From: an uncultured Verrucomicrobiota bacterium
GTDB taxonomy: Bacteria > Verrucomicrobiota > Verrucomicrobiia > Limisphaerales > J093
Direction: 5' to 3'
Assembly: GCA_964472515.1 (NCBI GenBank)
Contig: CAYYMW010000003.1
Location: forward strand, 1-56,514
Length of the DNA stretch: 56,514 bases
The notes under the pieces are model-generated. The model made no database searches. It had not been told where the DNA came from and saw only the letters and a list, made by a program, of their open reading frames with translations. Below are positions 11,758-51,573 of the stretch, one piece after another (position 1 is the stretch's first letter; each line of letters begins with the position of its first letter). The position numbers were made by a program, and so were the translations under genes.

Positions 11758-13158
11758 TCACAGCTTCAGGCGGAAGAAGCGGGCGGCCTCTGTCGGGGCC
11801 ATGGTCCAGGGGGTCTGTGCACCCGTTTCATTCTGCCACGGGCCTGCGGGTGTGGGGGCGCTTTGCAGGGTGCCGGAGTTCCACCGCAGGGCCAAGACGG
11901 TGCCGATGCGAACGATACTCAGCTTCGGGGTTACCCGGCCAGTGCGCTGAGGGTTTTGCCGGAACATTGGCCACGGGCTGTCGGCAGGCGGGGAGTCGCC
12001 TTTGAGGGCGTAGACCTTCCCGTCGAAGGACGAGATGTAGACCGTGCCGTCCGCGCCGATGACGGGTGACGCAGTCACCATGCCGCCGGTCTGAAATACC
12101 CAGCGCAGCTCGGCCGTCGTGCTGTCGATGGCGTAGAGTTTAGAGTCATCGGAACCCACATAGACGGTGCCGTCCGCAGCCACCGCAGGGGAGGAGGATA
12201 CGGCACCAGTGGTGGAGTACTCCCAGAGCCTTTCCCCGGTGACGCCGTTGAAGGCGTGGAGCTTGAAGTCGTCACCACCGACGAACACGGTTCCGTCCGC
12301 TCCGACGGCTGGAGAGGACTCCACCGGCATGGTGATGGGGAACGCCCAGCGCTTCTGGCCGGACTGAGCGTCCAAGGCGTAGAGGTTGAAGTCCACCGAT
12401 CCGATGTAGACGACGCCGTTCGCCCCCAGAGCGGGCGAGGCGGTGACCATCTCCCCCGTCAAGAAGCTCCAGCGGATTTGCCCGGTGCGGCCGTCCAAGG
12501 CGTAGACCCGTTTGTCCCACGAGCCGAAGTAGACCGTTCCGTCGGCGCCAATGGCGGGAGAGGAGGTGACGGAAGACTCTGTGGCGAAGCGCCAGCGGCG
12601 TTGACCGGTGGCGGCGTCCACGGCGTGAATGGCTCCGTCAAATGAAGCAACAAGCACCGTGCCGTCGGCCGTGAGAGCGGGGGAGGAGGAAACGGGGGCC
12701 TGGCAGTCGTAGGTCCAACCCCGGCTGCCGGAACCGCCGGCCAAGGCAATCAGGCTGCCGTCGGCCACGCCGACATAGACCGTTCCGTCTTGGCCGACGG
12801 CCGGGGCCGTGTCGATCCAATTTCCGGCCAGAAATTCCCAGCGTTTCTCGCCGGTGGCGCCTTCCAGGGCATAGAGCTTGTTGTCATGCGATCCCACATA
12901 GACCGTGCCGTCCGCGCCGAGGGCGGGCGAGGAATCCATGTAGCTGCCAGTGGCGAACTCCCAGAGCTTGACGCCGGGAGGGATGGGTGCCGGAGCAGTC
13001 TCGGCGGGAGGAGAGGGACTCGTTGTTGTCTGCCCCGCCATGGCAGAGTTGCCTGGAGCATGGGCCAAGGCGAGGAGCAACGCGCAAATCGGCCAAGACG
13101 GTGTCGTGCCCGGGTGGCCAAGCCCAGTCTGCCTGCATCTCAACAGGGCCGCATTCAT
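11758..13158 (-). CDS. PQQ-like beta-propeller repeat protein with C-terminal RFFRL domain
   Basis: About eight repeats of SSPA(I/L/V)xxDGTVY(V/F)GSxDxxLYA(L/I)DxxTG..W; signal peptide; start 13158 (ORF extends to 13212). Confidence 0.9.
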   Translation of the reverse strand: MNAALLRCRQTGLGHPGTTPSWPICALLLALAHAPGNSAMAGQTTTSPSPPAETAPAPIPPGVKLWEFATGSYMDSSPALGADGTVYVGSHDNKLYALEGATGEKRWEFLAGNWIDTAPAVGQDGTVYVGVADGSLIALAGGSGSRGWTYDCQAPVSSSPALTADGTVLVASFDGAIHAVDAATGQRRWRFATESSVTSSPAIGADGTVYFGSWDKRVYALDGRTGQIRWSFLTGEMVTASPALGANGVVYIGSVDFNLYALDAQSGQKRWAFPITMPVESSPAVGADGTVFVGGDDFKLHAFNGVTGERLWEYSTTGAVSSSPAVAADGTVYVGSDDSKLYAIDSTTAELRWVFQTGGMVTASPVIGADGTVYISSFDGKVYALKGDSPPADSPWPMFRQNPQRTGRVTPKLSIVRIGTVLALRWNSGTLQSAPTPAGPWQNETGAQTPWTMAPTEAARFFRLKL

Positions 13159-13239
13159 AAGTGCCTTCGCGACAGGATATGGATGTTCTGAGGTGGCAAG
13201 GACTACCACCAATCACGCACCGCCGCCAGCCTTTCCTGC

Positions 13240-23370: not shown

Positions 23371-23939
23371 ATGACGGCACGATGCGTGATTGTGGTGGGC
23401 GGAGGAGCGGCGGGATTCTTCGCCGCGATCGCCTGCGCCGAGGCGCGCCCGTATGTCGAGGTCACTGTGATCGAGAAAGGCGCCCAATTCCTTTCAAAAG
23501 TGAAGATCTCCGGCGGCGGCCGCTGCAACGTCACCCACGCCTGCTTTGAGGCTCGCGAACTCGCCGCCCACCACCCGCGCGGCAGCCGCGAATTGATCGG
23601 GCCCTTCCAGCGGTTCCAACCTCGGGACACCGTTGCGTGGTTCGCCCAGCGGGGCGTGAAGATGTATACCCAGCCTGACGGCTGCCTCTTTCCCGTCACT
23701 GACTCCTCCCAGACGATTGTCGATTGCCTCCTCCAGGCAGCCCGCCAAGTGGGCGTCCGGTTGCGCACCCAAAGCGGAGTCGAGCGCATCACCCGCTAGC
23801 CGGGGGAGGCTTCACGGTCGCCTCGACCGGCGGAGAAACCCTCACCTGCGAGCGCCTCCTCCTAGCCACCGGCGGCTTCAACTTCCAGGCCGCCTGGACC
23901 ACCGGGTGGTTCGCCGGCCGCGCCATGGCGGGGGATTAG
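23371..23939 (+). pseudogene. HI0933/YhiN/BaiN-family flavoprotein pseudogene (frameshift plus large internal deletion)
   Basis: GGGAAG, KVKISGGGRCNVT, GCLFP, then TAG at 23797-23799. The next frame continues LAGGGF...LLLATGG and joins directly to the family's C-terminal motif GGFNFQAAWTTG, so roughly half the protein is missing. Confidence 0.85.
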
Positions 23940-23941
23940 GC
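23892..23941 (+). repeat. Direct repeat, left copy (3' end of the HI0933 gene)
   Basis: gcctggaccaccgggtggttcgccggccgcgccatggcgggggattaggc; 48/50 identical to 26143-26192. Confidence 0.95.
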
Positions 23942-23945
23942 AAGA

Positions 23946-24599
23946 TCAGTAACTCCTCAGCAACTTCGGTCCCAGCAGTCGCTCCACCAACCGATATACC
24001 CGAGTGCCAGTCCGCTCCGGCCAATATCCCTTGGGATGATCGGCGTCCCCCTCCAGCGAACGGGCTCGACGAACGGCCTCCTTTACCTTATCGGCCGGGT
24101 AGTGCTCAGCTTTGAGGCGGGTCTTGTTGAACTCGCCCAAAACCCGGCGCAACCGCTTGTCGACTTCACTACCGCCTCCCAAGACATGCCCTGGAGCAAC
24201 GTCCTCGTGGTGCAAAAGGAGCCAGAGGTCGAAGCAGGGATTGCTCATCGCGATCTGAACGCCTCGCCGACGCGCCCGACTCAATGCGTCTGTCAGGCCC
24301 TTTCGGTGGTTAGGCTCGACCCAGTGGTCAGTATCCAATAGTATCCAGAACTCGTCATCCTCGTTGGAATCGTAATGTTTGCGAGCCTCTTCCAACCGCT
24401 GGACCACGTGTCCCGGTGACGAGCGGCCCTCGCCTGCTGGGGTTTCAAGAACGAAGACGTGAATCCGAGTTTGGCCAAGGAAGTCGAAATACTGTTTGGG
24501 TGCGCAAGTATCCTCTGTCGCCACAAAGAACAGTCGGTCGTCCCGGTAGGTCATCTCTGACCGGGCCAATGGCCTCGGCTTACGGTGAAGAAGTCCCAT
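23946..24599 (-). CDS. rloB: RloB family protein (AbiLii-like, TOPRIM-like)
   Basis: FFVATED...KQYF, WILLDTDH, SNPCFDLWLLLHH, terminal T-x-V-Y-x-L-V-E. Confidence 0.9.
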   Translation of the reverse strand: MGLLHRKPRPLARSEMTYRDDRLFFVATEDTCAPKQYFDFLGQTRIHVFVLETPAGEGRSSPGHVVQRLEEARKHYDSNEDDEFWILLDTDHWVEPNHRKGLTDALSRARRRGVQIAMSNPCFDLWLLLHHEDVAPGHVLGGGSEVDKRLRRVLGEFNKTRLKAEHYPADKVKEAVRRARSLEGDADHPKGYWPERTGTRVYRLVERLLGPKLLRSY

Positions 24600-24602
24600 G
24601 GC

Positions 24603-25976
24603 TCAGGCCGGGTGAACCTCCTGCATCAGCCGGTCCAGATTCCCGAGGAACGGAATGGCGCCAAAGCGTCCCTCCAAGTAGCCCTTTTGGATGCGCAAAT
24701 CCTGCCGGACCTTGAAATCGGAGAGAGAATAGATCTCGGTGGCACCCGCCGGCGATTTCTCGGCAAACCAGATCTCATCCCGCCGAAGAAGGTCCAAGTC
24801 GAGCAGGTTCGACTCGTGCGTCGTAAGGATCAATTGACTGCCTTGGGGGCATCGTGTCGCCAAGAAGCACTCCAGGAACTTCCTCGCGAGCAGCGGGTGC
24901 AGGCTCCGATCAATCTCATCGATGACGTACACTCTGGGCCGACGGTGGAGGGAATCCAATGCCGGCACCAGATGTGCAAGGCGAATAGTGCCGTCTGACT
25001 CTTGATCGAATGGCAGGACGACCTTCTCGCCGGTCGTTGCCCTATGTTCGGCCTGGATGCTCAACTGTGCCACGCGACCATCTGGCATCCTCATGAGGGT
25101 GACTTCCGGCCCTTGCCGCAGCAGCGGGGAATACAGACTGTCGTGATCGACACCAGTGCCTGCTGCGGCCAATTCTTCGGGCGAGAGCCTGAGCGAACCT
25201 AAGTTAAGCTCTCGGGCCTCGGTTCGGACACCGTCGATCCCAGTACCCGCCTCAAACAAGAACCGCCCGAGAAAGCCCGCGAACTCCTCGTCATGGATCA
25301 ATGTTGGAGCCAGCCTTATGTATTGGGAATCGGGCGGTACTACCGCCACCCCCTCGTTGAACCACTCCAAGACCGGTCGGATGAGGGGACCTTGACCAGT
25401 CCCCTCCACGTTCTTCCAGATCGCGGTCAGGAACAACTGATTGCGACGAACCCCAATGGAAGCCAGAGCTTCGATCTTGCGATGATCGCCTCGCTTCGGA
25501 TCGGACAGGTCTTTTCCCAATTCGACTTTGACCTCGCCCTCCGTGGTCAACCGCTCGAACAGCAAACGTTCCCTCTCACCATCGAGCAGCGATAGCCACT
25601 CAGTCGCAACTTCCTTCTCTGTCACCCCAAAACCGTAAACGTACGCTCCCTCCGCAGCGCTAAACCGGTACTCCAACTTGGTGGGGTTCGCCGCCATCTG
25701 GGAATCCATCGCGAACCGCTGCCGCGGGATCGGCGCATCCGGGTTGGTGCCTTCGAGAATCAAGCGCTGCCCAAACTCGAAGGCCTTCACCCAGTTCGAC
25801 TTGCCGGAGCCGTTTGCACCGTAAAACACGGCTACAGGCAGCAGGTCGTGATCTGTCCCGGCCAAGGGCGTTACGTGGGCGGGGTGGTGGCTGCCCAATC
25901 GCTTGCTGGCGACCATTGAAAGCGTCTGCTCTTCGGCAAACGATCTGAAGTTCGCAACGCTGAAGGAAATCAACAT
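24603..25976 (-). CDS. AAA_21/ABC-type ATPase (RloA/AbiLi-like)
   Basis: MLISFSVANFRSF, Walker A YGANGSGKS, signature QESDGT, Walker B YVIDEIDRSLHP, H-loop TTH, terminal YLEGRFGAIP. Confidence 0.92.
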   Translation of the reverse strand: MLISFSVANFRSFAEEQTLSMVASKRLGSHHPAHVTPLAGTDHDLLPVAVFYGANGSGKSNWVKAFEFGQRLILEGTNPDAPIPRQRFAMDSQMAANPTKLEYRFSAAEGAYVYGFGVTEKEVATEWLSLLDGERERLLFERLTTEGEVKVELGKDLSDPKRGDHRKIEALASIGVRRNQLFLTAIWKNVEGTGQGPLIRPVLEWFNEGVAVVPPDSQYIRLAPTLIHDEEFAGFLGRFLFEAGTGIDGVRTEARELNLGSLRLSPEELAAAGTGVDHDSLYSPLLRQGPEVTLMRMPDGRVAQLSIQAEHRATTGEKVVLPFDQESDGTIRLAHLVPALDSLHRRPRVYVIDEIDRSLHPLLARKFLECFLATRCPQGSQLILTTHESNLLDLDLLRRDEIWFAEKSPAGATEIYSLSDFKVRQDLRIQKGYLEGRFGAIPFLGNLDRLMQEVHPA

Positions 25977-26142
25977 GGTGCGTGTTTTTCGCAAATGCCC
26001 ACCCAGAAGCGCAGTAATCGACGCCATTAGTGGGCGATGCTTGCGAATTTATCACAACAATCTACGGAGATCAACATGAGGGATGTTTGATCGAGGCTTC
26101 ACGGCCTCAGGCCCGGCCTGCCTTAAGGGCTGATCGTGTAAT

Positions 26143-26192
26143 GCCTGGACCACCGGGTGGCTCGCCGACCGCGCCATGGCGGGGGATTAGGC
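26143..26192 (+). repeat. Direct repeat, right copy (displaced duplicate of the HI0933 3' end)
   Basis: gcctggaccaccgggtggctcgccgaccgcgccatggcgggggattaggc; two mismatches versus the left copy. Confidence 0.95.
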
Positions 26193-31244: not shown

Positions 31245-32429
31245 ATGAGCGACAAGAACATGCTCGAAGGCGATCTTCAGGATCAGGCCCATCGGGAGTA
31301 CCACTCCGACCTCGGGGTGACCCGGACCCAGATCGTGAAGCTGCCCGGCTTCCGGGTCGAATCCGGCTACGACCTGCCCGAAGTCCATGTTTCGTATCAG
31401 ACGCTGGGCCAGCTCTCGCCCGCCAAGGACAACGCGATTCTCGTTTGCCATGCCTTGTCGGGAGATGCCCACGTGGCAGGATTGAGCCCCGCCACCGGAC
31501 GGCCGGGTTGGTGGGATTTTCATGTCGGCCCCGGCAAGGCCATCGACACCAACCGCTTTTTCGTCATCACGAGCAACGTGCTCGGCGGCTGCAGCGGCAC
31601 CACCGGCCCTTCCTCGGTCAATCCGGACACCGGGCGGCCCTACGCCACCGACTTCCCCCCCGTCTCCATCCGCGACATGGTCAAAGCCCAGGCCCTCCTG
31701 CTGGACCACCTCGGAATCCAGCGGGTCTTTTCGGTGGGTGGCGGTTCCATGGGCGGGATGCAGGCCCTGGTCTGGGCGCTCGAGTATCCGGAGCGCGTCC
31801 AGACCTGCCTGGCCATCGCCACCTGCACGGCCCACAACGCCATGCAGATCGCCTTCAACGAGGTTGGCCGCCAGGCGATCATGTCCGATCCCCATTGGCA
31901 CGCCGGTTACTACTACGACTGCGAGCGCCCCACCCAGGGCCTGGCGGTGGCACGGATGGTCGGTCATGTCACCTACCTGAGCGAGTGGTCCATGCACAAG
32001 AAGTTCGGACGCCGGCTCCAACGCCCCACCGTCCCGGACGATCTCTTCCCCGATTTCTTCTCGGTGGAAAGCTACCTCCAGCACCAAGGCGAGAGCTTCG
32101 TCAAACGGTTCGACCCGAATTCCTACCTCTACCTGACCAAGGCCATCGACCGCTTTGACCTCTTCGAGCACCAAGCGGCGCGCGAAGCGTTGCGCCATAC
32201 CCAGGCCCATTTCCTGGTCATTTCCTTCGAGTCGGACTGGCTGTATCCCCCGACCCAATCACGCGACTTGGTCAAGCAACTCAAGCGGCACAACCTCAGC
32301 GCCACCTACCTGAACCTGGATACCCCTTACGGCCACGACTCCTTCCTCATCCGCAACCCCGAATTCAGCCGGGCGCTCGGCAATTTCCTGACCAGCGAGT
32401 ACCGGCAGCTCACCGCCGGCCACGCCTGA
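31245..32429 (+). CDS. metX: Homoserine O-acetyltransferase
   Basis: CHALSGDAH, NVLGGCSGTTGP, GGSMGG nucleophile elbow, FDPNSYLY, DWLYP, YGHDSFL. Confidence 0.95.
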   Translation: MSDKNMLEGDLQDQAHREYHSDLGVTRTQIVKLPGFRVESGYDLPEVHVSYQTLGQLSPAKDNAILVCHALSGDAHVAGLSPATGRPGWWDFHVGPGKAIDTNRFFVITSNVLGGCSGTTGPSSVNPDTGRPYATDFPPVSIRDMVKAQALLLDHLGIQRVFSVGGGSMGGMQALVWALEYPERVQTCLAIATCTAHNAMQIAFNEVGRQAIMSDPHWHAGYYYDCERPTQGLAVARMVGHVTYLSEWSMHKKFGRRLQRPTVPDDLFPDFFSVESYLQHQGESFVKRFDPNSYLYLTKAIDRFDLFEHQAAREALRHTQAHFLVISFESDWLYPPTQSRDLVKQLKRHNLSATYLNLDTPYGHDSFLIRNPEFSRALGNFLTSEYRQLTAGHA

Positions 32430-32469
32430 GCGACGCTGCCGGCTTGGCTGAGACACCTTATTCTCCAGT

Positions 32470-33099
32470 ATGTCCGCTACCCTCTATGACCTGGTGATCG
32501 ATTGGGTTCCCCCCAAGTCCCGGGTGCTGGATCTTGGCACGGGCGACGGCGCCTTTCTGGAGCGCCTGGTCAAGGCCCGGCAAGTGCGGGGCGAGGGCGT
32601 GGAGCGCGAGGCCGAGTCGGTCACCCACTGCATCGGCCGCGGGTTGGTGGTGCACCAGGGCGACATTCTCGACGGGTTGGACCAGTACGAGAGCGGTTCT
32701 TTCGATTACATCCTGCTGCTGGGCACGCTGCAGGAGTTGGTCGATCCCCAACCCGTCTTGCGCGAGGCTTTCCGCGTGGGCCGGCGGGTGATCGTTTCCT
32801 ACAGCAACTTTGCGCATGTCCGTTCCCGTCTGCAGTTGCTGTTCAAGGGCCGCTCACCGGTGACGCGCGCCCTGCCTTGGCCGTGGTACCGCACGACCAA
32901 CCTGCACTTCTTCTCGGTTCTCGACTTCGACGAACTCTGCCGCGACTCCGGCTTCCGCATCCTGCAAGAGGCCTACTTCAACCATCGCGGGCGCATCCAC
33001 GCCTGGCCTAATCTCCGGGCCGAGCATGCGCTTTGCCTGCTCGAATCCACCCAACCGCCCCCACCGGCAGCACCTGCCGCCCTCAGCCCCTCCATCTGA
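32470..33099 (+). CDS. metW: Methionine biosynthesis protein MetW
   Basis: VLDLGTGDG SAM motif, SYSNFAH, LPWPWYRTTNLHF; directly after metX. Confidence 0.9.
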   Translation: MSATLYDLVIDWVPPKSRVLDLGTGDGAFLERLVKARQVRGEGVEREAESVTHCIGRGLVVHQGDILDGLDQYESGSFDYILLLGTLQELVDPQPVLREAFRVGRRVIVSYSNFAHVRSRLQLLFKGRSPVTRALPWPWYRTTNLHFFSVLDFDELCRDSGFRILQEAYFNHRGRIHAWPNLRAEHALCLLESTQPPPPAAPAALSPSI

Positions 33100-33598
33100 G
33101 CTGCGTTCCCGATGCCTCGGGCAGGGGATGTCCCGTGCTGAAGCCGGTCGGCAACCGGGCATAAAGGGCCGGACGATAGTGCTGGATCAGGGCCGCCAGC
33201 CAGTGGCGCATGAAGATCCAAAGCCAATCGCGCCCGCCGTTGCCCGAACCGCGCAGCCGCCGACGGACGCCGGCATTCGTGGCATAGACCGCCTCCGCGC
33301 GATCCATCAGTTTGAGTTGCCACTCGCGCGGCAATTCCTCCCCCAGCCAGACGCAGACTTCCTCCCACACACCGGTAGCCACGATAGCCGGCACGAGCAC
33401 GGTCTCCTCCGCAATCCGTGGCGGATGCGGCCAGGCAGGCCAATCTCCGGGGCCGGTGGGGCCTTCGATCTCCTGGAGGAGCGAGGAGGCCGGGCTCTGG
33501 CGCGTGGGTTTGGCGGTTCCGCCGGAAGCGCGCTTGGAAGCGGAGCGCAGGCCTTTTGGCCGAATGCAGGGCGGCTGGCAGGTGGCTGGAGAGTTCAT
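33083..33598 (-). CDS. Hypothetical protein directly downstream of the RM gene
   Basis: C-terminal half is protein-like (W-rich helix RDWLWIFMRHWLAALI); N-terminal half low complexity, true start uncertain; overlaps the metW stop by 17 nt. Confidence 0.45.
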   Translation of the reverse strand: MNSPATCQPPCIRPKGLRSASKRASGGTAKPTRQSPASSLLQEIEGPTGPGDWPAWPHPPRIAEETVLVPAIVATGVWEEVCVWLGEELPREWQLKLMDRAEAVYATNAGVRRRLRGSGNGGRDWLWIFMRHWLAALIQHYRPALYARLPTGFSTGHPLPEASGTQLRWRG

Positions 33599-33602
33599 GC
33601 TT

Positions 33603-33626
33603 GAGACTCCTTACGTGGTCTCCTGA
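33603..33626 (+). repeat. 24-bp palindromic-element arm that supplies the RM gene stop codon
   Basis: gagactccttacgtggtctcctga, 21/24 to the reverse complement of 35149-35172; the minus strand reads QETT-TAA. Confidence 0.8.
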
Positions 33627-36600
33627 GGAGAGGTTGGGGGTGGGGCAGGATCGCCTTCGACGATCTTGATTTCGGCTTCGGTGAGGCCGTAAAGGTCGTA
33701 AACGAGGCGGTCAATCTGGGTGTCGGTGGCCGCGATCTGGCGGGCGAGGGCGGTCTGCTCCTGCGGGGTTCGCGCGGCGGCGGCCTGCTGGTGCAGCGCC
33801 AGCATTTGCTCGACCAGCTTCACCATGCGGTCGCGGCGGGATTTGTCCGAGGGGTTCGACGAATCGATGACGCGGATGGGAACGCGCTCCATGTACTGGT
33901 AAATGAGGCGATAGCGGAACTCCCCCGCGCGGATTCCGAAAGGGATGCTGAGGTTGGCGATCGCAAACCAGAACACCCGGCTGTTCAGCACCCCCAGCAG
34001 ATAAGGGTCGTCAGTGCCAAGGCAATAGGCGGTGTTGGCGAGGTAGTGAGCGCCGGAGTCAAGGCTGAAGCGAGGCCCCTTACAGATGTCGGGAAAGATG
34101 ATCTTCGGCTGGCTGAACGCCTCGTAGTACGCCACGTCGTCCTGAATCTCGTACCATTCGTAGCGTCCAGGTTTGCGCCCTCGCTTCGCGCTCTTGTCCC
34201 GTTTCGGGGTCAAATCCTCCTTCCATTGCGCCAAGTGATCGCGGATCGCTGGATACCTGTCGATCTCGACTCCGCGCCGCGTGAAGATGATCCAGAGTCC
34301 GGTTTCGTGGAAGATGAACCGACGAATATCCTCTCCACCGAGCAGGGGGTGAATCAGCTCAGCGCTCCGTCTGTCTTTGGCAATGAGCCGCTTCCTCGTC
34401 TCCGCATCGATGATGAACGCCTCGTTCATTCCCGTCTTGATGCCGTAGAACATCCTCCGTTCAACATACTCCCCCAGCGGTTTGCCGGCTTTCATCACCT
34501 TGGCAAAGACGGCGGCTTCGGCGTCAGACTTCAGCGACCACGCCTCGGCCGAGAGGCGCTCGTGGGGAATTGTGTAATGATGGGCGACCACATGCTCGGC
34601 CAGCTTCAAGCTCTTCAACGACGTCACCTTGGATACCTCGACCCGCGTGGGTTTCGCGCCCTTGCCGAGCAGGGGGATGCAGACGTAGGTGTCTTTGGCG
34701 TTGGCGAAGACTGCCAGGCCGCCAAAGTCCACGATGCGCCGCACTGCCGCGTGCTGCTTCAGCGTGCGCCGGAGCGGTTCACCGTAAGACGCGCGAAGGA
34801 AACTGCTGGAGACGATGATGCTGAAGAGTCCGCCCTCGCGCAGGAGCTTGACACCCTGCTCCATGAAGTAGGCGTAGAGGTCCGCGGTGCCATCATACGC
34901 TTGGTAGTGCCTCTCGAAGTAGTCCTTGAGGTGGGACAGCGATTCCTGGCGAACATACGGCGGGTTGCCGATGACGGCATCAAAGCCGCCTTCCCAGGCG
35001 GGCTCGGCCGGTGGCGCCGGGGGCGGTGCCTTGGCGCCCTTCGACTGCTTGTAGCTGTAGCTGCCATGCACCGGCACGCCGGGCATCCCAAAGTCCAAGG
35101 GCGAGGCGGCGGCGGTTTCCCGCAGGGCGCCGTCGTCGCCCTCACCAGGTAGGAGACGACGTAAGGAGTCTCTGTCTAGTTCTTCCGAAGATGCTTGAGA
35201 CTCGTCACCTCGTCTCCTACGGAAGACCTGCGGGAACTCGGTTGGCCAGTCGAACACGTTCAGACGGAACCGTTCCTCGTCGTCGAGCAGGGCCATCTGC
35301 TGCTGGGCGTAGAAGTCCGGGCCGATCAGGGAGTTGCCGCACTTGATGTTGTCGCCGAGGTCGGGCAGGGCGCGCTCCTGCGAGAAGCGGAACACCGTTT
35401 GCAGGCTCTGTTCGGTTTCCCCTTCCAGCACCTTCAACAGGAGGGACAACTTGGTGACCTCGACGGCCTGGGCATCGATATCGACTCCAAAAATGTGGTT
35501 GAGGAGAATCTGCTTGCGGGTGGCGATGGTCAGTTTCCACCCACCGCCGCTGGTCTGGACGATGGGCGGGTTCTTGCCGCGCAAGAGCCAGTGACCACGC
35601 GTCGCATTGGCAGGCGGCGACGTAGGGAGTCTCGCTTCCTTCCCAGGCGGCTGCAAGAGAGTCTCGCTACCTCGACTCCCACCCTCAGCGTGACCAGGCA
35701 GGGCGGTTTGAGTCTCGTTACCTCGACTCCTACCCGCAGCGTGGCCGAGGAGCCGGGTGTAGAAGTCCAGGTGCCAGTCGAGAAGGTACTGGTAAGCGCC
35801 GATGAGGAACGAGCCTGACCCGCAGGCGGGATCGAGGATGCGCAGTTTGGCGACGCGGCCGAGGATTGCCATGGCCGTCCGGGAATCGCAGGCGGCAGGA
35901 GGCGGCGCCTTGCCCGCTCCAGAGCGGACGGGAGTCTCGTTGCCCCGATTCCCACCCAAGCAGTCCTCGACGAGTTTGCCCACCGTCTGGCGGACGATGT
36001 AGTCCACGATGTAGGTGGGGGTGTAATAGACGCCCCCGGCCTTCTTGACCTCCGGCTTGTCGTCCACCACGGCCCGGTGCCCTTCGGTCAACCGGATGAC
36101 TTTGCCGAGAAACTGTTCGTACACTTGGCCAAGGATGTCGGCCGAGACGACTTCGAAGGCGTAGGGGCAGTCCGGGTAGTACAGGCTGCGCAGGAGGTCG
36201 CGCAGGAGTTTGTCGTCGAGGTCGAGAGTCCGCGTCAGTTCGTCGGGAGCCTCGTGCCGGTCCTTCTCAGGCTTGAAGTGGAACAGGCCGGAGTTGTAGC
36301 GGGCGTCAGCGGCTTCGAACACCTCGCAAAGGCGCGGGTAGACGCGCTCGCCGTTGACGAGGGCGCGGAGGCGGCCGTAATCCTCGATCCCGCGGTCCTC
36401 GCAGATGCGCAGGAAGATGATGCGGTCGATGATGCGCTGGACCGCGAAGTTGAGTTCGCGCTGGGTAAGGTTGGGATTGCGGAGCGCGAGGTTGCGGGCC
36501 AGTTCCAGCCGCCAGCCTTCAATGGTCTCCAGAAAGGCCTGGTCGAAGGTGGTGGTGCCCTTTTTGGCCTTGGTGGACTCGGCGAATTGATCGAACCCGC

Positions 36601-37123
36601 CCTTGAGGACGGCGTCGCGGGAAAAGCGCTCGCAAATCCAGTCCCATTTCTCCGCGTAGTCGCGGAAGGTGCAGTAGAAGATGCGGGCCTTGGCCGCTGG
36701 ATCGTCCTTGTGCGGCTTGTAGCGACCGTCATAGACCGCGAACTCCTCGAAGTCGCTCAGCAGGCTCAGCGGCAGCTTGGCGGTAAAGGCGTAACGGCGG
36801 AGTTGGAAGGCGGGGCCCACGTCTCGATGGACATCCACCGACGGACGTTTGGCCTCCAGAAAGAACTTGCGCGTGCCGCCGATGCGGAAGGAATAGTCGG
36901 GCGCCCGGACCTCGCGGCCAATGCGGAGGACGTCTTCATGGATCACATCCCGGTAGGCCTCGGCGTAACCCTGCTCGTTGTCCATGTCCCAGCCCAGCGC
37001 TTTGAAGAAGGGATCGAGGAAATCGCGGCGGACCTGGGTCTCGTTGTAGGCGCCGGCTTTGTAGGCGTCGAGTTGCTGCCCAAAGCGGGCGACCAAGTCG
37101 AGGATAGCAGCAGGAGCCGGCAT
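33611..37123 (-). CDS. Type IIG restriction-modification enzyme (fused REase + m6A MTase + TRD; Eco57I/TaqI-like)
   Basis: PDY...LEAKRP nuclease motif, YNSGLF, GVYYTP, LDPACGSGSFL (motif I), FGVDID, VIGNPPY (motif IV), TaqI-C-like KIIFPDI. Confidence 0.93.
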   Translation of the reverse strand: MPAPAAILDLVARFGQQLDAYKAGAYNETQVRRDFLDPFFKALGWDMDNEQGYAEAYRDVIHEDVLRIGREVRAPDYSFRIGGTRKFFLEAKRPSVDVHRDVGPAFQLRRYAFTAKLPLSLLSDFEEFAVYDGRYKPHKDDPAAKARIFYCTFRDYAEKWDWICERFSRDAVLKGGFDQFAESTKAKKGTTTFDQAFLETIEGWRLELARNLALRNPNLTQRELNFAVQRIIDRIIFLRICEDRGIEDYGRLRALVNGERVYPRLCEVFEAADARYNSGLFHFKPEKDRHEAPDELTRTLDLDDKLLRDLLRSLYYPDCPYAFEVVSADILGQVYEQFLGKVIRLTEGHRAVVDDKPEVKKAGGVYYTPTYIVDYIVRQTVGKLVEDCLGGNRGNETPVRSGAGKAPPPAACDSRTAMAILGRVAKLRILDPACGSGSFLIGAYQYLLDWHLDFYTRLLGHAAGRSRGNETQTALPGHAEGGSRGSETLLQPPGKEARLPTSPPANATRGHWLLRGKNPPIVQTSGGGWKLTIATRKQILLNHIFGVDIDAQAVEVTKLSLLLKVLEGETEQSLQTVFRFSQERALPDLGDNIKCGNSLIGPDFYAQQQMALLDDEERFRLNVFDWPTEFPQVFRRRRGDESQASSEELDRDSLRRLLPGEGDDGALRETAAASPLDFGMPGVPVHGSYSYKQSKGAKAPPPAPPAEPAWEGGFDAVIGNPPYVRQESLSHLKDYFERHYQAYDGTADLYAYFMEQGVKLLREGGLFSIIVSSSFLRASYGEPLRRTLKQHAAVRRIVDFGGLAVFANAKDTYVCIPLLGKGAKPTRVEVSKVTSLKSLKLAEHVVAHHYTIPHERLSAEAWSLKSDAEAAVFAKVMKAGKPLGEYVERRMFYGIKTGMNEAFIIDAETRKRLIAKDRRSAELIHPLLGGEDIRRFIFHETGLWIIFTRRGVEIDRYPAIRDHLAQWKEDLTPKRDKSAKRGRKPGRYEWYEIQDDVAYYEAFSQPKIIFPDICKGPRFSLDSGAHYLANTAYCLGTDDPYLLGVLNSRVFWFAIANLSIPFGIRAGEFRYRLIYQYMERVPIRVIDSSNPSDKSRRDRMVKLVEQMLALHQQAAAARTPQEQTALARQIAATDTQIDRLVYDLYGLTEAEIKIVEGDPAPPPTSPQETT
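35149..35220. repeat. 72-bp inverted-repeat element inserted in frame in the RM gene
   Basis: Arms gtaggagacgacgtaaggagtctc (35149-35172) and gagactcgtcacctcgtctcctac (35197-35220), 21/24 complementary, 24-bp spacer. Confidence 0.9.
35610..35733. repeat. Cluster of three more 24-bp arms (one inverted pair plus a copy at 51-bp period) in the RM gene
   Basis: 35610-35633 gcaggcggcgacgtagggagtctc; 35659-35682 gagtctcgctacctcgactcccac; 35710-35733 gagtctcgttacctcgactcctac. Confidence 0.85.
35932..35955. repeat. Degenerate solo 24-bp arm in the RM gene
   Basis: gagtctcgttgccccgattcccac, translated as GNRGNET. Confidence 0.7.
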
Positions 37124-37129
37124 GGATAG

Positions 37130-37158
37130 GTTTTAGCCAGCGTCGCCCGGTTTGTCAG
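37130..37158 (-). promoter_or_regulatory. Candidate leaderless promoter of the RM gene
   Basis: Minus strand CTGACA-N17-TAAAAC-N6-ATG(37123). Confidence 0.4.
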
Positions 37159-37326
37159 CTTCCTTCTTCCGGTTGGATTGGAGCGGTGCATGCCGAGGTT
37201 GTCGGTGGATTCAAGTGGCGGCGGCGCCGCAGCGCCCGCCTCCAGGCGGTGGCTGTGGCCGCACCGGCAGGGCAGGGGACTAGCGCGGAGTTGAACTCGA
37301 CCCGGCCGGGCGGCGCGAATGTCCTT

Positions 37327-37355
37327 TTGCCACCCGGGCGGCCGGATGGTACGCT
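37327..37355 (+). promoter_or_regulatory. sigma70 promoter of tyrS, leaderless geometry
   Basis: TTGCCA-N17 (ending TGG)-TACGCT-N8-ATG(37364). Confidence 0.6.
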
Positions 37356-37363
37356 CGCGCCGC

Positions 37364-38644
37364 ATGAACATTTTGGAAGAGCTGAAGTGGCGCGGGTTGT
37401 TTGCGGATTGCACGGATGAACCGGAGTTGGCCAAGCGCTTGGCTGCCGGTCCCATCACCCTGTACTGCGGCTTCGACCCCACGGCCGACAGCCTCCACGT
37501 CGGTAATCTGGTGCCCCTGCTCGCGCTCCGTCGCTTTCAACTGGCTGGCCACCGGCCCATTGCGCTGGCCGGCGGCGCCACCGGCACCATCGGTGATCCC
37601 AGCGGCAAGACCCAGGAGCGCCAACTCCAGACCAAGGAGACCATTGCCAACAACATTGCCTGCGTGAAGGAGCAGCTCCGCCGGTTGCTCGATTTCGACG
37701 CTCCCGCCAATCCTGCCCGCCTGTTGGACAACGCCGAATGGACCGCTCCGGTCACCTACCTGGACTTCCTGCGGGACGTCGGCAAGCACTTCTCCGTGAA
37801 CATGATGGTCAGCAAGGAGAGCGTGCGCGCCCGCATGGAGGATCGTGAGCACGGCATCAGTTACACCGAGTTCAGCTACATGCTGCTGCAAGCGTTCGAC
37901 TTTCATCATCTGCGCCAGACCGTGGAATGCGAGTTGCAGATCGGTGGCAGCGACCAGTGGGGGAACATCACGGCCGGCATCGACTTGTGCCGCAAGAAAA
38001 GCAACCACTACGTCTTCGGCCTCACTCTACCGCTGATTACCAACGCCGACGGCACCAAGTTCGGCAAATCCGTGGCGGGCGCGGTCTACCTCGATCCTCG
38101 CAAGACCAGCGTTTACCGCTTCTACCAGTTCTGGATTCGCACGGACGACCGTGACGTGGTCCGCTACCTCAAGTACTTCACGTTCCTGGCTCCCGATATG
38201 ATCGAAGCGCTGGCGCAGCAGCATGCCGCCAAGCCTGAGGCCCGCGACGCGCACAAGGCGCTGGCGCGGTCGATGACCGACCTCATTCACGGTTCCGCTG
38301 CCACGCAGGAGGCCATCCGCGCGAGCGAGATTCTCTTTGGCGGGGGGCTTGAGGGCATCTCGGAAGCCACTTTTAACGATATTGTGGGTGAAGTCCCCAC
38401 GAAGCCCATCCTCCGGGCGCAGGTGGAAGGGGCGGGTCTGTCGTTGGTGGAGGCGCTGGTCTTGGCCGGCCTTTGCCCGAGTAAAGGGCAGGCGCGCAAA
38501 GATATAGAGGGTGGTGGTATTAACGTCAACAACCAGCGGGAGACCAATTTTCAGCGTCAGATCTCCGCTACCGACCTGCTCTTCGGCAAGCATGTGTTGC
38601 TGCGGAAGGGCAAGCGCAACTATGTGGTGCTGAGCTTGGAGTAG
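37364..38644 (+). CDS. tyrS: Tyrosine--tRNA ligase
   Basis: YCGFDPTADSLHVGN (HIGH), QIGGSDQWGNI, KFGKS (KMSKS), C-terminal S4 domain RKGKRNY. Confidence 0.97.
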   Translation: MNILEELKWRGLFADCTDEPELAKRLAAGPITLYCGFDPTADSLHVGNLVPLLALRRFQLAGHRPIALAGGATGTIGDPSGKTQERQLQTKETIANNIACVKEQLRRLLDFDAPANPARLLDNAEWTAPVTYLDFLRDVGKHFSVNMMVSKESVRARMEDREHGISYTEFSYMLLQAFDFHHLRQTVECELQIGGSDQWGNITAGIDLCRKKSNHYVFGLTLPLITNADGTKFGKSVAGAVYLDPRKTSVYRFYQFWIRTDDRDVVRYLKYFTFLAPDMIEALAQQHAAKPEARDAHKALARSMTDLIHGSAATQEAIRASEILFGGGLEGISEATFNDIVGEVPTKPILRAQVEGAGLSLVEALVLAGLCPSKGQARKDIEGGGINVNNQRETNFQRQISATDLLFGKHVLLRKGKRNYVVLSLE

Positions 38645-50039: not shown

Positions 50040-50510
50040 ATGCGCATGAAAACCCAACCAAGCCCCTTCCGAACGACCCGCCGCGAGCGCCGGCGCGGGT
50101 TCACGCTGATCGAACTGCTGCTCGTGCTGGTCATTCTGGGCGTCCTGGCCGCTATCGTCGTCCCCAAATTCGCCGGCCGCACCGAGCAGGCGCGTCTGAC
50201 CGCCGCGCAAACGCAGATCGCCACCTTCGGCACGGCGCTGGACGCCTTCGAGGTGGACAACGGCTACTATCCCAAAGGCCGCAACGGGCTGCTGGACCTG
50301 TTCACCCAACCGCGCGACACCACCAATTGGAAGGGCCCGTACCTGAAGAACGACGTGCCCATGGACCCCTGGGGCAAGGAGTATATCTACGAGTGCCCGG
50401 GCAAGCAGAACCCGAACGGCTATGACCTCTATTCGCTGGGGCCGGACGGCCGCGAGGGCACCGAGGATGACATCACCAGCTGGCAGCAGGGCAGCCAGAA
50501 GAAGAAGTAG
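50040..50510 (+). CDS. gspG: Major pseudopilin GspG
   Basis: G|FTLIELLLVLVILGVLA; ALDAFEVDNGYYP; WKGPYL; DPWG..Y; YSLGPDG. Confidence 0.95.
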   Translation: MRMKTQPSPFRTTRRERRRGFTLIELLLVLVILGVLAAIVVPKFAGRTEQARLTAAQTQIATFGTALDAFEVDNGYYPKGRNGLLDLFTQPRDTTNWKGPYLKNDVPMDPWGKEYIYECPGKQNPNGYDLYSLGPDGREGTEDDITSWQQGSQKKK

Positions 50511-50516
50511 CGTCCT

Positions 50517-51149
50517 GTGCGGAATCCACGATCCAGAGCGGCGGCGTGGGCGCCAGGTTCCCGGCGGCAGGGCGCGGGGCCGGGTGGCGCGCGCGCGTTT
50601 ACGCTGATCGAGCTGATCCTCGTAATGGCGCTGCTCGCGGTCGTCCTCTCGGTGTCAGCGCCGTCGCTCGCCCGGTTCTTTCGGGGACGCAGCCTGGACT
50701 CGGAAGCGCTGCGCCTGCTGGCGTTGACGCGCTACGCGCAAAGCCGGGCGGTCTCGGAAGGGGTGCCGATGGCCCTGTGGATCGACGAACAGAACGGCCG
50801 CTACGGCCTGCAGGTCGAGCACACTTACACCAACCGCGCGGAGGACGAGGATGACCGCGCGGTGGAATACAACGTCGATGAGAAACTGACGCTGGAGCTG
50901 GCGCCTGTCACAGGAGTCAACCCCATCCTGCAGACCAACCTGTTGGAAGCGCGCACGCAGGAACGAATCAACGCCGTCCTGATTCGCTTTTCGCCCGAGG
51001 GCTTCCAATCCGAGCTCAGCCCCGAGTGGATCTGCCTCCGGGAAAAGCCCGATCAACCCCAACCCGCGTCCCTCTGGGTGGCCCAGAGCGAGAACGGGCT
51101 CAACTATGAACTGCGCACGAATCAACCGCTCTTCCGGGTGCGCCGTTAA
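50517..51149 (+). CDS. Minor pseudopilin, GspH/FimT-like
   Basis: A|FTLIELILVMALL; LTRYAQSRAV. Confidence 0.85.
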   Translation: MRNPRSRAAAWAPGSRRQGAGPGGARAFTLIELILVMALLAVVLSVSAPSLARFFRGRSLDSEALRLLALTRYAQSRAVSEGVPMALWIDEQNGRYGLQVEHTYTNRAEDEDDRAVEYNVDEKLTLELAPVTGVNPILQTNLLEARTQERINAVLIRFSPEGFQSELSPEWICLREKPDQPQPASLWVAQSENGLNYELRTNQPLFRVRR

Positions 51150-51573
51150 GCGCCCCTGCCGCGGGTTCACGCTGGTCGAGACGCTCGCCGCCTTGGTGTT
51201 CATGGCGATCGTCATCCCGGTGTCCGTGGAAGCGGTGCGGCTGGCCGGGCGCGCGGGCTTGGTGGCCGAGCGCAAGGCGGTGGCCGCCCGCGTGGCCGAG
51301 CGCATGTTGAACGAACTGGTGGTGACCGGGCAGTGGCAGGGCGCGCAGCCCACCGGCGAGGTGCGCGACCGCCTGCTGACCTACCGTTGGTACGCGGAGC
51401 AGGAAGCCTGGCAACTGGCCGAGCTCCAACAGTTGACGGTCCGTGTCACCTTCCAAGCCCAGGGCCAGGAATACGATGTGCGGTTGAGCACGCTGGTGGA
51501 CAGCGCGACCGCCACCTCGACCACAAGCAACACCACCAGCACCAGCACGACCGGCAGCAGCGGCACGCAATGA
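51106..51573 (+). CDS. Minor pseudopilin, GspI-like
   Basis: G|FTLVETLAAL; Thr/Ser-rich tail; exact start uncertain. Confidence 0.8.
   Translation: MNCARINRSSGCAVKRPCRGFTLVETLAALVFMAIVIPVSVEAVRLAGRAGLVAERKAVAARVAERMLNELVVTGQWQGAQPTGEVRDRLLTYRWYAEQEAWQLAELQQLTVRVTFQAQGQEYDVRLSTLVDSATATSTTSNTTSTSTTGSSGTQ

Follow-up and report, generated by a model that had tools for sequence, protein, structure and literature searches.

A Type IIG restriction-modification (RM) gene of an uncultured Verrucomicrobiota bacterium (Limisphaerales, J093) very probably carries copies of a GTAG-tagged family of repetitive extragenic palindromic (REP) elements, of the type that pairs into REP doublet hairpins (REPINs), inserted in frame and with the enzyme left intact. 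The gene lies in a stretch of 56,514 nt (GenBank assembly GCA_964472515.1, contig CAYYMW010000003.1, positions 1 to 56,514), which is the window analyzed here. While in-frame intragenic repeats are already described for other repeat families, this GTAG REP family is new. An initial annotation had noticed seven 24-nt arms in the gene and attributed them to a family resembling REPs or miniature inverted-repeat transposable elements (MITEs) that repeatedly colonized a defense enzyme. The first of these two likenesses holds, since the arm is a dispersed REP-like repeat with at least 120 loci. The second does not, as the GTAG head, the covariation within the arm and the missing target duplication are unlike a MITE derived from an insertion sequence (IS).

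Seven Arms in One Gene

The window was scanned with the degenerate consensus GAGWCTCSYYACSTCGWCTCCYAC, allowing up to three mismatches, and 100 dinucleotide-preserving shuffles served as control. Exactly seven sites match (33603+, 35149-, 35197+, 35610-, 35659+, 35710+ and 35932+; Table 1), which are the seven arms originally noticed; four have no mismatch and three have three mismatches. None of the shuffled windows (n = 100) contains a match, which excludes a chance origin. The remainder of the 56.5 kb holds no further copy at up to six mismatches to the strict consensus, as had been supposed by eye. On their GTAG side, the arms begin with GTAG (three arms), GTGG (two), GCAG (one) or TCAG (one).

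Table 1. Arms, composite repeats and associated genes of the RM locus (window coordinates; strand as given in the analysis).
Feature	Coordinates	Strand	Description
Arm 1	33603..33626	-	Single degenerate arm (TCAG head), 3 mismatches, overlaps the 3' end of the gene
Tail-to-tail dimer, 72 nt	35149..35220	.	24 + 24 + 24 nt: arm 2, spacer, arm 3
Arm 2	35149-35172	GTAG head on +	0 mismatches
Arm 3	35197-35220	GTAG head on -	0 mismatches
Arm 4	35610..35633	+	Degenerate partner in the site-B dimer, GCAG head, 3 mismatches
Arm 5	35659..35682	-	GSRGSET; tandem copy of the arm-6 unit (51-nt duplication)
Arm 6	35710..35733	-	RSRGNET; 0 mismatches, exactly the 24-mer consensus of the initial annotation
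Tandem pair of ~51-nt (17-codon) units	35643..35748	.	One arm in each unit; boundaries approximate
Arm 7	35932..35955	-	GNRGNET; single degenerate arm, insertion before motif I, 3 mismatches
Host RM open reading frame	33611..37123	-	1170 aa, single-chain Type IIG RM enzyme
Small conserved gene downstream of the RM gene	33122..33448	-	No Pfam match
Clade-specific conserved loop, ~50 aa, adjoining the dimer	34985..35131	-	GxLRE..PLDxxMPGVPxHGSYSYK..PPP..EGG

The finer architecture that had been read from the letters is likewise recovered. The inverted pair of arms 2 and 3 has the proposed division into three 24-nt parts and encodes RRRGDESQASSEELDRDSLRRLL immediately before motif IV of the methyltransferase. 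Arms 5 and 6 start 51 nt apart, their units are identical at 38-39 of 51 positions at this offset, and the similarity of the two arms runs 13 nt past the arm (37 nt at 89%). The four arms said to share one reading frame do so (RRRGDES, RSRGNET, GSRGSET and GNRGNET), and the arms fall, as described, before motif I, between motif I and the GVDID motif, and before motif IV. Arm 6, in the second of these positions, has an orthologous remnant, GRSRGDE, in the homologue P0002, and arm 4, which reads ..RLPTSPP.. in the frame of the gene, has an equivalent SLLTSSPT arm in the same homologue. The insertion that contains arm 7 is missing from 80 of 112 homologues. Arm 1 ends the gene: its GTAA loop supplies the TAA stop codon of the RM open reading frame (ORF) at 33611-33613, in line with the original proposal that one arm provides the stop, and homologues end ~10 aa earlier. 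It is predicted to adopt the hairpin fold of the family and occupies the junction between the RM gene and a small gene, a typical (classical) position for a REP.

Insertions in Predicted Loops of an Intact Enzyme

The host protein has Pfam matches to HSDR_N, Eco57I (3.8e-40), MmeI_Mtase and TaqI_C, arranged as an N-terminal PD-(D/E)xK nuclease (HSDR_N), an Eco57I/MmeI-type N6-adenine methyltransferase and a TaqI_C-type target-recognition domain. Its top PADLOC match is REase_MTase_IIG (3e-191, spread over four stretches), and a Foldseek search with the structural model retrieves CamA, BrxX/PglX, MmeI, BpuSI and DrdV. Across 120 homologues, the residues D76/E90/K92 of the nuclease and the methyltransferase motifs I (DPACGSGS) and IV (NPPY) are invariant, and all of them are intact in the host protein. 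All components by which a Type IIG enzyme is recognized are thus found in one chain, i.e., the nuclease, a gamma-type N6A methyltransferase with motifs I and IV, and the target-recognition domain. Judged by its sequence and its predicted structure, the ORF is an intact Type IIG RM enzyme despite the inserts.

The host protein was aligned with 20 and then with 119 homologues, and insert lengths were compared across 112. The alignments demonstrate that the three arm-bearing low-complexity segments are insertions: they are missing from homologues of ~1000 aa, including ones that are 71-77% identical, and homologues from distant taxa are without arms. At site A, before motif I, the baseline is 27 residues in 80 of the 112 homologues, compared with 58 in the window. 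Site B, from motif I to GVDID, has a baseline of 56-57 residues, and its 107 residues in the window are the maximum of the 112. The same holds for site C, before NPPY, with 92 residues in the window and a baseline of 17 residues in 55 homologues; about 45 of the 112 have an extra conserved loop of ~50 residues there. In the nucleotide alignment, P0002, P0003 and others have a gap of exactly 24 codons where the window has the 72-nt dimer, and the left junction of the dimer, TTC C|GTAGG, is common to the window, P0048 and the 32%-identical gene of L095. Furthermore, the G+C content at third codon positions (GC3) is 0.62-0.78 in the insert segments vs 0.80-0.87 in the rest of the gene.

An AlphaFold model computed from 120 sequences has a mean predicted local distance difference test score (pLDDT) of 79 and a predicted template modeling score (pTM) of 0.79. 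Confidence falls below a pLDDT of 50 at residues 392-405, 465-509, 639-708 and 1160-1170, which are the arm-bearing segments, and is otherwise almost wholly high. The model therefore supports the view that the arms occupy predicted disordered surface loops of an enzyme whose catalytic motifs are kept, as suspected when tolerant loops of an unbroken enzyme were first proposed.

Recognizable arms occur in only six of the 120 RM homologues. Other repeat-like peptides stand at the same insertion sites in P0002, P0048, P0088 and P0105 (alignment A1); Verrucomicrobiota homologues have PHPDPLPxGEG and LSPGEGRGEG, and a Gallionellales protein has GAPPGRDSRAGHAPTE. These peptides suggest that other palindromic repeat families may use the same RM loops. 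Since few homologues have arms and others have different repeat-like peptides, the loops are general landing and tolerance sites.

A Conserved Hairpin with Compensatory Changes

Read from the GTAG side, the arm is 5'-GTAG-G-[GAGWC GA S GNRA S GA GWCTC], a head followed by a short hairpin whose 5-bp stem leads through a tandem G.A mismatch and a single closing pair to a GNRA-like loop. ViennaRNA folds a single 24-nt arm as ....(((((..(....)..))))). Covariation among 110 unique arms, from the window and the related loci listed, demonstrates this hairpin: stem pair 8-21 varies between AU (40), CG (15) and UA (15), and the closing pair 12-17 between CG (54) and GC (34). Paired cells amount to 89.8% vs 76.2% in shuffles, and the covariation score of 0.320 (shuffles, 0.113) is reached by none of 500 shuffles, with shifted registers scoring 0.045 or less. 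Positions S8/S13 and W4/W17 were left unconstrained in the search pattern; hence, the complementarity does not stem from the way in which the arms were gathered. The two halves of the tandem G.A/A.G mismatch are kept in 103 and 95 of the 110 unique arms, respectively. GTGA (51 arms) and GTAA (26) are the common loops, and GTAG (77), GCAG (15) and GTGG (5) the common heads.

Five of the six reading frames of an arm are stop-free, and the sixth has two stops, TAG from the head and TAA from the loop; the 3'-terminal arm 1 is read in this stop-bearing frame and ends the ORF. A scan of positions 33000-37500 against Rfam, with E-values up to 10, gave only chance-level matches and no matching family, and a literature search for the arm sequence matched only unrelated primers.

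A Dispersed Family Centered on Verrucomicrobiota

The arms of the window belong to a dispersed family. A scan of a species-representative genome collection finds the arm in at least 120 loci, with several per metagenome-assembled genome (MAG); the counts of dimers, clusters and hosts given below rest on the loci listed. About four-fifths of the listed records are labeled Verrucomicrobiota (Limisphaerales, Pedosphaera, subdivision 3, Verrucomicrobiales), and the remainder have other or no labels, all taken as given. This distribution bears on the idea that the repeats arose only by local duplication or low-complexity expansion within the gene, which the initial annotation had named as a possible refutation should the motif have no other genomic copies. 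Arms 5 and 6 do lie within a 51-nt tandem duplication, and the window has no copy outside the gene. However, the motif has many copies in other genomes, where the same 24-mer occupies at least 120 unrelated loci, the four sites in the RM gene have unrelated flanks, and the site C dimer is missing in a close relative and present in a paralogue family only 32% identical. As a complete explanation, local duplication is refuted, and we leave it next to no probability.

Most arms are paired. Adjacent arms are tail-to-tail inverted, with the GTAG heads pointing outward, in 100 of 115 pairs, and the ends of the element are sharp (GTAGG...CCTAC). Spacers of ~10-66 nt differ between species and are alike within one MAG (L033, L046, L075). 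In 59 of 83 dimers, an arm with a C-G closing pair is combined with one with G-C. Single arms and same-orientation tandem arrays also occur; L071 has five same-orientation copies with a 44-45-nt period at 1-250, and L022 has three tandem dimers ~190 nt apart at 100-560.

Long open frames (250 aa or more) are under-used by the elements, at 34% vs 69% for random positions in the same loci. Nevertheless, stop-free frames of 200 aa or more, extending 20 aa or more to either side of the cluster, contain 59 of 147 clusters. The hosts include valyl-tRNA synthetase, DNA polymerase III alpha (DnaE), Hsp70 (DnaK), CTP synthase, PurL, UvrD, ExoVII, xanthine dehydrogenase, a protein kinase and two other Type IIG RM genes. 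The arms yield recurrent, frame-specific peptides, namely VGDEVTSL, RRRGDES, ETPHVVSY, SLLTSSPT and SSRRLL. Dimer lengths overall have no preference for multiples of three, and thus the in-frame state of the intragenic copies reflects selection and not a property of the element. Viral contigs with an arm number only five of 2.9 million, so that a link to phages is unsupported.

The flanks of 89 dimers contain no direct repeat and have a palindromic YY|...|RR bias instead, i.e., pyrimidine-rich on the left and purine-rich on the right. This matters for the possibility that the dimers are IS-derived MITEs, with terminal inverted repeats mobilized in trans by a DDE transposase. The dimers do resemble 24-nt terminal inverted repeats around a short, variable and AT-richer core, and a motif-only search found no REP-associated tyrosine transposase (RAYT). 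Yet a target-site duplication is missing and the flanks are palindromic, compensatory changes show that every arm forms a hairpin of its own, arms often stand alone or in same-orientation tandem arrays, the spacers, at 10-66 nt, are very short and lack conservation, and the GTAG head is a hallmark of REPs (PMC3733652). A MITE origin is accordingly very unlikely in our estimation.

Turnover among Relatives

Presence/absence polymorphism of the arms is observed among relatives. The 80%-identical P0002 also has the site-B insertion, with arms in partly different frames, which indicates that the site-B dimer is old. Contigs of close relatives from wastewater and biofilm metagenomes (X1 and X5) have at site B arm 4, a 26-nt spacer and arm 6, a canonical dimer. 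Their joint skips 77 nt and puts in 26, so that they have 51 nt fewer than the window. Because X1 and X5 are without the 51-nt duplicate, arm 5 is a local tandem copy. The proposed repeated colonization hence holds for the separate insertions at several sites and not for the arm at 35659. At site C, X5 keeps the 72-nt dimer; in X1, 24 unrelated nt, still in frame, replace 35133-35219 (87 nt including the dimer).

In the L095 subfamily, only 32% identical, site C is empty (FRRKTFSGELRD), has a single arm or has a dimer, with the left junction TTY C|GTAGG; filled sites differ from empty ones by replacement of a few nt, with no duplication. The "empty" FRRKTFSGELRD may itself be a remnant of an older arm. 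The loci L131, L138, L130, L132 and L095 form a series of empty, single-arm and dimer states at one nucleotide before NPPY.

Inverted repeats within an RM gene are also typical substrates for phase variation, and intragenic invertons have reportedly been described (bioRxiv 10.1101/2023.03.11.532203). The inverted pairs might thus be segments flipped by a recombinase, recoding the RM enzyme. Only 24-26 nt lie between the arms, however, more than 100 genomes carry the same arms mostly between genes, contigs from four metagenome runs (contigs only) yielded no strand-switching joint at these sites, and no recombinase adjoins the RM gene. We consider invertons extremely improbable.

Relation to Known Repeat Families

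Di Nocera, De Gregorio and Rocco (2013; PMC3733652) defined GTAG-tagged REPs, which in Opitutus terrae comprise the families GTAG-17 to -20. In O. terrae and other species, intragenic REP dimers encode 20-30 aa and REP ends supply stop codons, and the O. terrae hosts include an N-6 DNA methylase (PMC3733652). The arm has several properties of GTAG-tagged REPs, namely a stem-loop of 20-40 bp, a GTAG or GYAG/GTRG end and frequent pairing in opposite orientation (PMC3733652). It further resembles the O. terrae REPs in occurring in the same phylum, in its GTAG (or GTGG) head and short stem-loop, in inverted dimers with variable tail-to-tail spacers, in many copies within real genes and in stop codons supplied by its ends. 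It differs from them in its 5-bp stem, conserved tandem G.A and GNRA-like loop, and in its occurrence in more than 100 species, most of them from subdivision 3 (Limisphaerales, Pedosphaera). The encoded peptides differ as well: those of O. terrae are VGPALAAG, VAGVADP and GTGVPPV, in contrast to the five recurrent peptides listed above. With seven arms at four sites, the window gene is more heavily loaded than the double insertions reported in O. terrae.

Compared with the REPs and bacterial interspersed mosaic elements (BIMEs) of E. coli and Pseudomonas and with the REPIN-RAYT system, the arm has in common the GTAG head, an imperfect hairpin, inverted pairing with the potential for a long hairpin, a pyrimidine-rich dinucleotide immediately before the head, no target duplication and, in the loci listed, a mostly intergenic location. 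Unlike these elements, it is shorter (24 nt), its spacers are not conserved, its intragenic share is far larger, it is conserved class- or phylum-wide and not within a species group, and no cognate RAYT was found by the motif-only search.

The Rickettsia palindromic elements (RPEs), which served as precedent in the initial annotation, are CGTC-tagged (Ogata et al., 2000, as cited in PMC3733652). They are palindromic in-frame inserts in functional, often essential genes at structurally tolerant positions, as the arm is. They are also ~100-150 bp long, unrelated to the arm in sequence (24 nt, GTAG) and found in an obligate intracellular alphaproteobacterium. The arm is not an RPE-family sequence and has only the in-frame insertion behavior in common with them. 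With MITEs (Correia/NEMIS, ERIC, RUP), it shares the character of a short non-autonomous inverted repeat that can be co-transcribed and is occasionally intragenic. However, MITEs have IS-type terminal repeats and target-site duplications, and neither is seen for the arm dimers, which are therefore outside the MITE definition.

Spread, Persistence and Possible Function

We propose at least four independent insertions into the RM gene, at sites ahead of motif I, past it, ahead of motif IV and at the stop codon, with one more copy, arm 5, added by the 51-nt tandem duplication. The copies probably persist because five of six frames are stop-free, because the net insert lengths are multiples of three and because the landing sites are predicted disordered surface loops that tolerate other insertions in homologues; open frames, multiple-of-three inserts and tolerant loops together would account for an intact enzyme. 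The elements may move as DNA hairpins in single-stranded form, processed by a RAYT-type Y1 (HUH) transposase, as suggested by the GTAG head, the pyrimidine-rich 5' flank and the lack of target duplication.

Several observations weigh against a REP-type family as the full account. First, the four arm clusters lie within 2.4 kb of one gene, with none in the other 53 kb. This clustering is far from random, with P ~5e-5 even if the background rate is set as high as the absence of copies from 53 kb allows. Second, no RAYT/Y1 (HUH + Y) motif appeared in six-frame translations of the window and the 120 loci, nor among the 239 ORFs that lie no more than 250 nt from an arm (related loci, 843 kb in all), both searches being motif-only and of low power. 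Third, the site C arm of the L095 subfamily replaces ~six nt and is not a clean insertion. Finally, conservation over more than 100 species exceeds that of most REP families, which could indicate a role other than selfish propagation.

Two candidate explanations for parts of this pattern were discarded. Recent transfer from a REP-rich donor, as a cause of the local excess, has no support, because GC and GC3 of the conserved parts of the host gene match those of neighboring genes (neighbor GC3 0.81-0.86). A small ORF bracketed by inverted arms in L064 was considered as a transposase and rejected, as it encodes a secreted-looking protein.

An alternative that gives weight to the local excess is that the hairpins are kept for their function and that the REP family is only their source. 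RNA or DNA structures within the coding region would then tune translation, mRNA stability or transcription and, in this way, how restriction is balanced against modification. In favor, a very stable mRNA hairpin is predicted for the 72-nt dimer (-37.5 kcal/mol, z -6.3), the RM gene is strongly enriched in arms compared with the surrounding 53 kb, two of ~59 other intragenic hosts are Type IIG RM genes, one with a dimer at the same site, and the tandem G.A and GNRA motif is conserved phylum-wide. On the other hand, arms occur in both orientations, in different frames and in many unrelated housekeeping genes, hardly any of the RM homologues (6/120) have recognizable ones, close relatives are without the dimer or the duplicate, and three of the seven arms are decaying. 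Overall, the chances of this functional explanation seem slim. A broader version is still unlikely, if less so: the phylum-wide GTAG hairpin, nearly constant in more than 100 species, would be more than selfish DNA, namely a host-maintained structured element seen by a conserved factor. Its recurrent gain and loss at identical nucleotides of Type IIG RM genes, with empty, single-arm, dimer and nested states, would then be a switch that tunes or diversifies defense.

In-frame insertion of a GTAG-tagged REP family remains our preferred reading, and it makes the locus a clean case of REP-type hairpins placed routinely in frame within working genes, in a phylum remote from the Proteobacteria, the group in which REPs have been investigated. 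For annotators of Verrucomicrobiota genomes, VGDEVTSL, RRRGDES, ETPHVVSY, SLLTSSPT and SSRRLL are markers of repeat-derived loops and not protein features. Moreover, three Type IIG loops that tolerate 24-75 extra residues are mapped, which is useful for enzyme engineering, and the series of empty, single-arm and dimer states at one site is material for working out how REPs insert and are lost.

The RM Locus and Other Features of the Window

The RM gene is flanked by metX-metW (31245-33099, +) and tyrS (37319-38644, +). The small conserved gene downstream of it has a tblastn match of 51% identity over 109 aa to L123 (3601-3963), and a homologue lies directly 3' of the RM gene of P0048.

The ~50-aa loop adjoining the dimer also has a pLDDT below 50. 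In its fuller form (L124-L151), the loop reads GELRE..PLDYxMPGVPLHGSYSYKK..PP..EPEWEGG. RM genes with an overall identity of only 32% reach 58% identity in the loop and have a 23-nt DNA core in common. This core lies at the same site of RM homologues in 26 of 28 metagenome matches and was not found at any other place in the collected loci. The loop was considered as a second mobile palindromic element and rejected, as its core is almost confined to the same RM site; on alignment evidence, it is best described as a conserved feature of this RM clade, outside the repeat family.

In the close relative X5 (3.6-kb contig), the gene flanks match at 85% or more and the segment 33850-34952 does not. 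This segment encodes the C-terminal portion of the methyltransferase together with the target-recognition domain, and the mismatch is consistent with a specificity-domain swap between close relatives.

Elsewhere in the window, a 50-nt direct repeat, 96% identical, lies at 23892-23941 and 26143-26192 and duplicates the 3' terminus of the upstream gene, including its stop codon. Between the two copies lies a two-gene AbiL abortive-infection cassette, with an AbiLii/RloB-like gene (23946-24599, -) and an AbiLi/AAA_21 gene (24603-26027, -), the latter with a GC3 of 0.705 vs ~0.83 nearby. Positions 23892-26192 look like the insertion of a 2.25-kb defense cassette that contains no integrase and is accompanied by a 50-bp target duplication. 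The largest direct-repeat families of the window belong to a PQQ/BamB-like beta-propeller protein of 123-nt (41-aa) repeats at 11758-13212 (-). Finally, three neighboring ORFs at 50093-51196 begin with the prepilin-type motif GFTLIELL.., which gives a 38-nt repeat family, and they are probably a pseudopilin cluster.

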